Shown here piece after piece: positions 17,901-20,900 of a stretch of DNA of 64,000 nt. The first letter of the stretch is position 1; the number at the start of each line of letters is the position of its first letter. Made by a program: the position numbers. The stretch lies in NCBI RefSeq assembly GCF_054482525.1, contig NZ_CM137006.1. One strand, written 5' to 3'.

Positions 17901-20900
17901 GCTTTGCTTCGCTGCTGCCTGGCTGCAAGACGTTCAGACTCCGGTAAGCCCCGTATTTCATCCTCAATGGCGTACAGTTCACTGATGCGCTTCAGAGCTT
18001 CTTCTGCCGTCGTACTTTTGCTGCTGATGTATACATCGTGGATTTTTCGCCGGGCATGGGCCCAGCACGCAACTTCTGTCAGTGCACCACCTTCACGTTC
18101 GGCACTGAACAGCCGATCGTAACCGCTGAATGCATCCGCCTGCAGGATACCCCGGAAGGGACGAAGGTGTTGTACCGGATGTTTTCCCTGCCTGTCTGGT
18201 GAGTAGGCGAACCAGACCGCCGGTGGCTCTGATGAGCCCGCATTCCGGTCATCCCGGACATACGTCCAGATGCGTCCTGTTTTTGCCTTTTTTCTGCCCG
18301 GTGCCAGCACTTTTACTGGTATGTCGTCAGTGTGAACCTTGCGGGTGTTCATCACGTAACGGTACAGGGCATCATTCAGCGGAGTCATTAACTGGCAGCA
18401 CGCGTCAACCCAGTTGGAGAGTAATGCACGGCTCAGTTCGGCACCCTGTCGGGCAAAGATTTCACTCTGACGATACAGTGGCAGGTGTTCGCAGTATTGT
18501 CCCGTTAACACGCGGGCAAGTAATCCGGAGCCCGCGATGCCGCGCTCTATCGGGCGGGACGGCGCTGGCGCTTCAACTATACAGTCACATTTTGTACAGG
18601 CTTTTTTTACCCGAACAGTGCGGATCACTTTCAGGGCGCTACTCACCAGTTCCAGCTGCTCAGCACTGACTTCACCCAGATAATCCAGCTCACTGCCACA
18701 CTCCGGGCAACAACTTTCTTCAGGCTCCAGGCGGTGTATTTCACGGGGAAGATGTGCTGGTAACGGACGACGATGACGTGACTGTCGCAACTGGCGGGGA
18801 ACCTGCGGGTCATCCTCACGCCCACTGTAACGATCGCTTTCCTGTTCGCGTTGTTTCAGTTGGGCCTCAGCCTGTTCAACCTCACGCTGCAGTTTTTCAG
18901 AACGGGTACCGAACAGCATCCGGCGCAGTTTTTCTATCTGGGCCCTCAGATGTTCTGTTTCCCGCTCCTCCTCTTCGATCTTTTCTTCGGCACGTGCCAG
19001 TGCAGAGCGCAGGAAGGCCTCCGTCTCTTCAACCAGACTCAGTTGCTGATCTTTCTGACGGAGGGCTTCAGCCTGCTCAGAGAGTAGCCTTTCCAGCTCA
19101 GTGATACGAATGAGGTATTTCCGACTCATGACCGTTTTTATAATCCGGCCATGACATTTTTACAACATTGTCAGTGCATTAAGGCGGGATGTTTTGGGTT
19201 GACGCCAGTCCAGTTTATCGAGGAGCATTGCCAGCTGCGAGCGGGTAATGGATACCTTACCGTCACGCACCGCAGGCCAGATAAACTGGCCTTCCTCCAG
19301 ACGTTTGGTGAACAGGCACAGACCATCAGCATCAGCCCACAGGATTTTAATCGTGTCACCCCGTCGGCCGCGAAAGATAAACAGGTGACCGGAGAAGGGG
19401 TTCTCATCCAGCACATGTTGTACCTGTTCACCCAGACCGTTGAAGGATTTACGCATATCAGTAACGCCGGCAACCAGCCAGATTCGAGTGTCTGATGGGA
19501 GCGAGATCATCGTCCTCTCCCGGTCAGTTCACGGATCAACACCGTGAGCAGCTCTGGTGAAGGATTTTCCAGCGTCATGTTACCGTGGCGGAACTCAACT
19601 TTACAGGAACTGGCACTGACTGTGCTTTGTGAAGGAGTGGATAAAAGCGGAGTAAGAGCCGCCATAGGCTCTTTCTGCTCATCAGGCGTTATCTCAACAG
19701 GTAATAATTCAACGCCAGCGCCAGAAGAGGTTGTTACCGGAAGACGCCGCGATATACGCCCTTCGTTCTGCCAGAGCCTGAGCCATTTGAACTGGAGGTT
19801 ATCATTGATATCGTGTTCCCTGGCAATACGGGCAACAGAGGCTCCTGGTTGTGAAGCCAGTTTAACCATTTGAAGTTTAAACTCATTTGAAAATGTTCTG
19901 CGGGGTTCTGCGGGGTTCTGCGGATAATATTTTCTGTTCCATAACAGGTGTCCACTAGTTGAAAAAGTGGGCACCTACGTTACCAATACTGGCTTAATGG
20001 CTACATACGGCGGTCAGTTTACGCTTACAGAAATGTAATGAAGACGTCCTACCATTAACTGAAGAGCATGGTGACGGATGAAGGAAAAAGCAGGAGTGTG
20101 TGGTGCCTCACAGATTTCCGACATCATAGCTGTCAACGACGGATGAAAAGCGGCTCTTCCGCAACTTGGGTGGAAGAAAATGGATGAAACTTTCTGGTGT
20201 GAGAACCTTAAGGAAACAACATGTTGGGTGGAGCGGACAATCCAAATGGTGAATTACCGTCTTATATCACTGGCGCTGACATTCCGGGCGTCTTCTCCGC
20301 CACAACGCCATTTGCAGTGCATCACAGGCCAGTTGTGCTTTCATTCGCAGTGACATCGACCAGCCAATAACGGCGCGTGACCACAGGTCGATGACTACTG
20401 CGAGATACAACCAGCCCTCATCGGTACGCAAGTACGTGATGTCACCCGCCCACTTCTGGTTCGGGCCGCTGGCGCTGAAGTCCTGCTCCAGCAGATTCTC
20501 CAATACGGGCAGGCCATGTGCACGGTAGCTGACTGGGCTGAACTTCCGGCTGGCTTTCGCCCGCAGCCCCTGACGACGCAGGCTGGCGGCAATGGTTTTA
20601 ATATTGAACTCCGGCAGTTCGTCAGCAAGGCGGGGAGCACCGTATCGCTGCTTTGCCTCAAAGAATGCCTTATGGACAGCGGCATCGCAGGTGAGCCGAA
20701 ACTGTTGGCGCAGGCTCATCTGGTGACGACGCCTGAGCCAGACATACCAGCCGCTGCGGGCAACCCGAAGTACACGACACATCGCTTTGATGCTGAACTC
20801 TGCCCGATGATTTTCGATGAAGACATACTTCATTTCAGGCGCTTCGCGAAGTATGTCGCGGCCTTTTGGAGGATGGCCAGTTCCTCAGCCTGCTCCGCCA

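Follow-up and report, generated by a model that had tools for sequence, protein, structure and literature searches.

Does a short tandem repeat at the 5′ end of an insertion sequence gene act as a switch for transposase expression, or is it an accident of the coding sequence in which it lies? We address this question in a 64,000-nucleotide stretch of Escherichia coli DNA (NCBI RefSeq assembly GCF_054482525.1, contig NZ_CM137006.1; hereafter, the window), where an IS682-like insertion sequence (IS) of the IS66 family carries about three tandem copies of a 10-bp unit in its accessory gene tnpA. The original prediction, made from the window alone, held that slipped-strand mispairing would change the number of copies, shifting the frame of any upstream start and possibly modulating transposase expression, or alternatively that tnpA starts downstream and the repeats lie in its leader. 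Repeat number was compared among copies of the element, and alleles with 1, 2, 3, 4 and 5 copies were found. We propose that the decamers probably represent a +10-bp slipped-strand allele, an accidental repeat within the tnpA coding sequence that behaves as a mutational hotspot like the CTGG repeat of lacI, and not an evolved regulator.

Anatomy of the array and reading frame of tnpA

Tandem Repeats Finder (TRF) placed a perfect array with a period of 10 bp at positions 19895-19923 (2.9 copies, 100% matches, consensus GTTCTGCGGG), one of only three tandem arrays with a score of at least 50 across the whole 64 kb. On the coding strand, the ATG at 19942-19940 is followed by GAA CAG AAA ATA TTA T, then by the units CCGCAGAACC, CCGCAGAACC and CCGCAGAAC, and then by ATTTTCAAATGAG, the sequence past the array starting ATTTTC; with the unit CCGCAGAACC read on this strand, the array spans codons 7-13 of tnpA. 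The pattern of flank, array and flank has a single occurrence in the window and was absent from all 100 shuffles, and a rough estimate for 19 matching positions (~64,000 × 4^-19) gives a chance expectation of ~2 × 10^-7. The array is not a chance occurrence. The tandem decamers first seen at 19891-19921 are thus real, with coordinates that were off by 2-4 bases. They do lie in the TnpA N-terminus, as had been suggested, but not wholly upstream of the RRTFS core: the last unit encodes P-R-R-T and hence overlaps the core, and the Pfam match to HTH_Tnp_1 begins at R11, within the second unit. When the array was folded as single-stranded DNA, no convincing hairpin was obtained that could account for slippage.

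Copy number sets the frame. In the 2-copy allele, translation from the same ATG gives MEQKILSAEPRRTFSNEFKLQ... and the full 141-aa TnpA (in-frame reading MEQKILSAEPRRTFS..., ATG...SAEPRRTFS). In the 3-copy allele of the window, the ATG at 19942 no longer shares a reading frame with the tnpA body, and its own frame ends after 19 codons (MEQKILSAEPRRTPQNIFK*). The tnpA body remains open in the window, but the frameshift cuts its link to the ATG. By frame analysis, only 2, 5, 8... copies join the ATG to the TnpA body, in agreement with the expectation that each change of copy number shifts the frame relative to the upstream start. Each of the shifted frames has one upstream GTG (positions -32 and -13, counted from the ATG), and the predicted ribosome-binding contexts of both are weak like that of the ATG; the GTG at 19974, which opens the frame that the 3-copy allele uses, has no good Shine-Dalgarno sequence, with a predicted anti-Shine-Dalgarno duplex energy of just -2.8 kcal/mol. 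Judging from these start sites, TnpA of the 3-copy allele is most likely off or strongly reduced, its body being reachable only from weak non-ATG starts. The NCBI Prokaryotic Genome Annotation Pipeline (PGAP) calls the frameshifted tnpA of four of the sequences compared (L004, L001, L015 and L016) intact by using CTG or ATC starts (WP_050576101.1, WP_032297139.1). These CTG- or ATC-start proteins of 3- and 4-copy alleles are probably annotation artefacts, and such starts are annotated in ~190 complete E. coli genomes because PGAP imposes a start on the shifted frame.

If the array instead lay in an untranslated leader, with a downstream start of tnpA (the ATG of ...KLQMVKL, for instance), copy number would be irrelevant to the protein. 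The weak Shine-Dalgarno context of the ATG at 19942 and the commonness of 3- and 4-copy alleles would suit such an arrangement. A start at M22, however, would lose the conserved RRxFSxEFK segment although HTH_Tnp_1 is matched from R11, and the downstream ATG has a still weaker predicted ribosome-binding context. Relatives, moreover, retain the upstream ATG, which PGAP uses as the start in 2-copy alleles, and between it and the RR pair they differ mostly synonymously (codons 3-12: CAG/CAA, TCC/TCA, GCA/GCT, AGA/AGG). Because the domain starts at R11, the ATG is kept and the differences are mostly synonymous, the array appears to be coding sequence, and we regard the leader arrangement as extremely improbable. 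Slippage would have been the weaker idea had every copy of the IS shared one repeat number and a defined downstream start; copies differ in number, and no downstream start found support.

Two further features adjoin or overlap the array. Read as RNA, its plus strand (19888-19940, antisense to tnpA) is G/U-rich and predicted to form a long hairpin containing G-U pairs, followed by a U-rich run. The fold has -18.7 kcal/mol (z = -4.7) with 3 copies versus -9.8 kcal/mol (z = -1.9) with 2; it was also flagged by a terminator scan, would strengthen with copy number, and is weak as DNA. Next to the array, at 19859-19891, a 17-bp unit is imperfectly repeated in tandem (coding strand, TCAAATGAGTTTAAACT / TCAAATGGTTAAACT) and encodes SNEFKLQMVKL; the repeat is nearly identical among the relatives examined, with one substitution in one relic and no change in length.

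Copy number across complete genomes

The element recurs in other E. coli chromosomes, where 2.6 kb including the ISEc45 junction described below matched over lengths of 2,631, 2,641 or 2,651 bases. To count copies, we surveyed 5,426 complete E. coli genomes with short synthetic queries and E-value cut-offs that passed full-length matches only; short queries were chosen since with a longer 97-nt query BLAST joins split pieces at 100% identity and so mixes copy numbers. A single copy was found at 31 places in 29 genomes, all plasmid-borne and mostly in isolates from pigs, cattle or pork, and in the one plasmid example inspected the tract adjoins the heat-stable enterotoxin gene sta1. Two copies are present at no fewer than 814 places in 776 genomes, a lower bound that undercounts because diverged copies with two mismatches have no 28-base seed. 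Three copies occur at 174 places in 169 genomes (173 chromosomal, 1 plasmid), and four copies at 18 places in 18 genomes, including UTI89, NU14 and UM146. The perfect-repeat query matched each of the 169 3-copy records with 100% identity, and no imperfect 3-copy allele was seen among them.

No place with 5 or 6 copies was found in the complete genomes by a query with 40-nt flanks, a design that detected synthetic 5- and 6-copy targets locally and would miss 7 or more copies; flanks of 19-20 nt were too short to seed megablast with DUST masking. Metagenome contigs scanned for at least four perfect copies yielded two, of which OAVM01000291.1 carries 5 copies, in frame, at the window's own locus. 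In alignments of 2-, 3- and 4-copy alleles from the same locus, alleles differed by exactly one decamer more or less, with otherwise identical flanks.

Repeated change at the cnf1 locus

In the window, the IS sits in a relic of ISEc16, ~2 kb downstream of cnf1, and this junction accounts for all but ~1 of the 174 three-copy places. With a query specific to the ISEc16/IS682 junction, the site was located in 244 genomes, most of which (168/244) carry the out-of-frame 3-copy allele; the remaining 76 genomes have 2 or 4 copies, 18 of them 4 and hence ~58 of them 2.

Thirteen representatives were examined through the locus and sorted by flanking single-nucleotide polymorphisms (SNPs), with the alignment anchored on the array itself. 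Haplotype I, the window's own, includes 3-copy (window, Es_ST80), 4-copy (NCTC9022) and 2-copy (GABEEC132) alleles. Haplotype II, which has an upstream SNP and a common 33-bp deletion in tnpC, likewise includes 3 copies (EcPF14), 4 copies (AHB19) and 2 copies (SCU-101), as does haplotype III, different at ~30 SNPs (3 copies in BH100N and SCAID, 4 in UTI89, 2 in AVS0750). Haplotype IV, which is nearest to the outgroups, has a C>T change in the second unit (CCGCAGAACCCTGCAGAAC), and this variant had 2 copies in all three sequenced examples, with neither 3 nor 4 copies seen. Because 2-, 3- and 4-copy alleles each sit on three flanking haplotypes, at least six independent slippage events would be required. 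Within clades, this amounts to at least 6 independent array events among 11 sequences versus 5 SNPs in 2,040 flanking bases, from which we roughly infer that the tract mutates ~10^3 times faster than a single base. The comparison shows an unstable array: at this single site in the chromosome, 3-copy alleles have repeatedly gained a unit to reach 4 or lost one to return to 2, in some cases restoring the frame. The copy-number change by slipped-strand mispairing that had been foreseen for the tract is thus borne out at a single locus, apparently through slippage.

These observations also bear on the possibility that the array is a single old 10-bp duplication, inherited clonally and not unusually mutable, with recombination, gene conversion or assembly errors behind the other copy numbers. 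Nearly all 3- and 4-copy alleles are indeed at one chromosomal locus, as one founding 2→3 event would predict, and many of the same genomes hold a 2-copy donor elsewhere. But each of the three haplotypes has 2, 3 and 4 copies, and the array is bracketed by marker sites, ~100 nt away upstream and 88 nt away downstream; conversion could have moved alleles between haplotypes only through tracts of less than ~200 nt, and would have had to do so repeatedly. Also missing from the 2-copy alleles at the locus are the SNPs of the candidate donor locus, which lie ~30-50 nt on either side of the array; there is no 4-copy donor elsewhere, and 10-base indels in 169 and 18 independent complete genomes would be atypical of assembly error. 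We consider this explanation very unlikely.

Two other candidates for the spread of alleles were examined and rejected. One was gene conversion supplying 2-copy alleles to the window's locus from the second 2-copy locus (described below), discarded because the donor SNPs near the array are absent. Genome H78 has five 3-copy places that could be taken for transposition; all five include the ISEc16 junction, and the assembly has many frameshifts. They appear to be segmental duplications.

The 33-bp tnpC deletion of haplotype II (sequences L013, L015 and L017) is in frame, falls in the 18204-18227 region and lies between direct repeats of ~9 bp. It represents another slippage-type event in this element, besides those at the array.

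Origin of the perfect repeat and its possible role

The intact IS682 copy examined reads CCTCAGAACCCCGCAGATC at the same codons, a degenerate sequence that does not repeat, and older relics read CAGCTGAACCCCGCAGGTT, again with no repeat. On present comparisons, the perfect repeat appears confined to one sublineage of the IS. A second fixed relic, beside an N-acetylneuraminate lyase gene, has a perfect 2-copy tract in 3/3 sequenced examples; because the window's junction explains nearly all 3-copy places, the tract at this second locus appears never to have expanded.

We therefore envisage an ancestral in-frame state of 2 copies, in which each unit gained or lost would shift the frame. Point changes in one sublineage may have made two similar 9-mers identical, creating a frameshift hotspot. 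In the simplest course, the ancestor of haplotypes I-III would have expanded once from 2 to 3 copies; there would since have been at least three slips from 3 to 4, at least three from 3 to 2 and one change to 5 copies, with a separate 2→1 loss on plasmids.

Could the tract instead be an evolved phase-variation (contingency) switch, in which slippage reversibly gates TnpA and hence IS682 transposition or the stability of the cnf1-hly island? The tract directly follows the start codon, its unit is not a multiple of three, and on three haplotypes its copy number changes recurrently and reversibly; alleles that are in frame, with 2 and 5 copies, occur, and on and off alleles are found in elements with intact tnpB and tnpC. 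All of this would be expected of a switch. However, the perfect repeat is missing from the intact IS682 copy and the relics examined, and at the second fixed relic, beside the lyase gene, the perfect tract has apparently never expanded. The number of copies is only 1-5, with 2 usual, whereas classic contingency tracts are longer, and the allele that predominates at the cnf1 locus is out of frame. The element is also fixed at one site with no visible movement, the five 3-copy places in a single genome being segmental duplications. We judge an evolved switch to be unlikely, and similarly doubt the narrower proposal that in haplotype III of uropathogenic E. coli the tract would be a reversible TnpA switch, the otherwise intact IS682 copy beside cnf1-hlyCABD being mostly silent and occasionally reactivated by a slip from 3 to 2 or to 5 copies. 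The earlier suggestion that the repeats modulate transposase expression, if taken in an evolved sense, finds no support here: the repeat is not conserved, the 3-copy allele is in the majority at the locus and the IS is already dead in the window.

Several observations weigh against an accidental hotspot or limit the case for it. The number of events is drawn from 11-13 sequenced representatives of the 244 carrier genomes. Near-identical genomes of the AVS isolate series, as well as two UPEC957C records, have the same copy number; because of this the rate of switching is not very high, which also tells against a contingency switch. The GTG codons of the shifted frames have a context no worse than that of the ATG, and a TnpA with an altered N-terminus might be made from them. 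A real on/off switch, too, would be expected to show reversion to 2 copies and an in-frame allele of 5 copies. Lastly, the haplotype III element is otherwise intact, its TnpC (WP_000088532.1) being identical in AVS0750 (2-copy) and BH100N (3-copy), and because of this the toggle could matter biologically in that haplotype. An accidental hotspot nonetheless remains our favoured explanation.

The host element and its surroundings

The features of the element are listed in Table 1. Terminal inverted repeats of IS66-family elements begin GTAAGCG, and both ends of the window element agree, with a left inverted repeat that begins GTAAGCGTAAACTGACC at 20028 and a right end ...GACGCTTAC at 16030. The 8-bp target-site duplication typical of the family, ACATTTCT, flanks both ends, and its three genes tnpA (PF01527), tnpB (PF05717) and tnpC are all represented, with an overlap of the tnpA stop and the tnpB start (ATGA; 19507.. 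/ ..19510). An uninterrupted TnpC homologue matches PF03050, PF13005, PF13007 and PF13817 and has LZ, zinc-finger, DDE_Tnp_IS66 and C-terminal domains, and PGAP names the intact tnpC of a related copy (L006) 'IS66-like element IS682 family transposase'. In work by Han et al. in 2001 on IS679, tnpA, tnpB and tnpC were reportedly all required for transposition. In the window copy, tnpC is split by ISEc45 (an insert of 1,455 bp) and tnpA is frameshifted. From its gene content and ends, then, the element is an IS66-family member, but a defective copy. Because ISEc45 already splits tnpC, the window copy cannot encode its own transposase, and the state of the array has no consequence for transposition there.

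Table 1 Position of the repeat array, start codons and IS components in the window
Feature	Position	Strand	Basis
Right copy of 8-bp target-site duplication ACATTTCT	16022..16029	-	Junction sequences
Whole IS682-like IS66-family element, including ISEc45 insert	16030..20028	-	End sequences, motif search
tnpC remainder (to ~16060) and right inverted repeat (...GACGCTTAC)	16030..16248	-	BLAST to uninterrupted copy L014, motif search
ISEc45 (IS110 family) in tnpC	16249..17703	+	Transposase open reading frame (ORF) 16318..17451; gap in L014 alignment; PGAP name
tnpC 5′ part (IS66-type DDE transposase), cut by ISEc45	17704..19129	-	BLAST versus L014 breaks at 17704
tnpB (IS66 Orf2-like), intact	19160..19510	-	Pfam PF05717, E = 7.8e-37; PGAP on identical copies
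tnpA body (HTH_Tnp_1 accessory protein)	19507..19894	-	ORF list; Pfam PF01527, E = 4.6e-13
TGA closing the ATG frame after 19 codons	19883..19885	-	Translation MEQKILSAEPRRTPQNIFK*
Decamer array (CCGCAGAACC CCGCAGAACC CCGCAGAAC)	19895..19923	-	TRF; sequence; alignment with same-locus alleles of 2 and 4 copies
Canonical tnpA ATG	19940..19942	-	PGAP start in 2-copy alleles; in frame there with RRTFSNEFK
GTG opening the frame used by the 3-copy allele; possible weak alternative start	19972..19974	-	155-aa ORF at 19507..19974
Left copy of 8-bp target-site duplication ACATTTCT, within ISEc16 (IS3 family) relic	20029..20036	-	Junction sequences; PGAP relic annotation

Many genomes have IS682 at the same site without ISEc45 (e.g., BH100N, AVS0750 and Ecol_656), and because of these the ISEc45 insertion is taken to be younger than that of IS682; ISEc45 in tnpC is nonetheless present on haplotypes I, II and III (UTI89). 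At the same site in NCTC10444, a calf isolate (L020), an IS4 element lies inside tnpA, ~200 nt past the start, and because of this second case the IS682 beside cnf1 has been struck more than once by other insertion sequences. Elsewhere in the window, a perfect 18-bp tandem duplication (ACATAAAACACTATCAGT x2.1) at 50661-50697 lies ~90 bp upstream of a second ISEc16-like sequence (50783-51707), which is 82% identical to the relic beside IS682.

Relation to known systems

The window element corresponds to the known IS682/IS66 element beside cnf1-hlyCABD in the island GI-pheU of uropathogenic E. coli, in the same place. IS682 with ISEc16 downstream of cnf1/hlyCABD has been described in ST131 virotype E strains, in a paper on the island that does not discuss the decamer tract (PMC8386418). 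We found no earlier description of the tract in the literature searched. Typing of the cnf1-hly island could make use of the tract as a minor marker. Were it a switch after all, it would represent a new means by which insertion sequences control their own activity, a phase switch at the DNA level that would keep the element, and perhaps also rearrangement of the toxin island, silent most of the time and reactivate it occasionally.

Transposase genes of IS1 and the IS3 family use programmed ribosomal frameshifting or transcriptional slippage at conserved slippery motifs on RNA. There, as in tnpA, the frame around the 5′ region of the genes for transposition sets the amount of functional protein, but recoding in IS1 and IS3 leaves the DNA unchanged and yields a transposase fusion, whereas the tnpA tract would act through a heritable length mutation of DNA in an accessory gene.

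Contingency loci are a closer formal match. Their repeats, such as CTCTT in the signal-peptide regions of Neisseria opa genes and the tetranucleotides of the Haemophilus lic and mod genes, form tracts that are long (often 6-30 units), conserved and selected, and that switch at 10^-2 to 10^-5 per generation. Like them, the tnpA tract is a repeat after the start codon whose unit cannot be divided by three (10 bp, codons 7-13) and whose copy number sets the frame, with recurrent, reversible change among close relatives on three haplotypes. It differs in having 1-5 units, in lacking evident variation within strains and in not being kept in related elements, the intact IS682 copy and the relics being degenerate.

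The closest parallel is the CTGG x3 frameshift hotspot in lacI of E. coli, reportedly described by Farabaugh, Miller and colleagues in 1978. Both are short perfect tandem repeats of about three units within coding sequence, in which gain or loss of one unit by slippage produces frameshifts and revertants restore the frame, and both would be accidents of coding sequence and not regulatory devices, the rate roughly estimated for the tnpA tract, ~10^3 times that of a single base, being that of a hotspot and not of a high-frequency switch. The tnpA tract differs in its 10-bp unit (4 bp in lacI), its 2-copy ground state and its location in the accessory gene of a mobile element, and the evidence is natural polymorphism across genomes where that for lacI is a mutation spectrum. 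It would offer a natural example of two similar 9-mers becoming identical by chance and giving rise to an unstable site at which a gene is broken and repaired again and again, and as such the tnpA tract is a further example of an already known kind of mutational hotspot.

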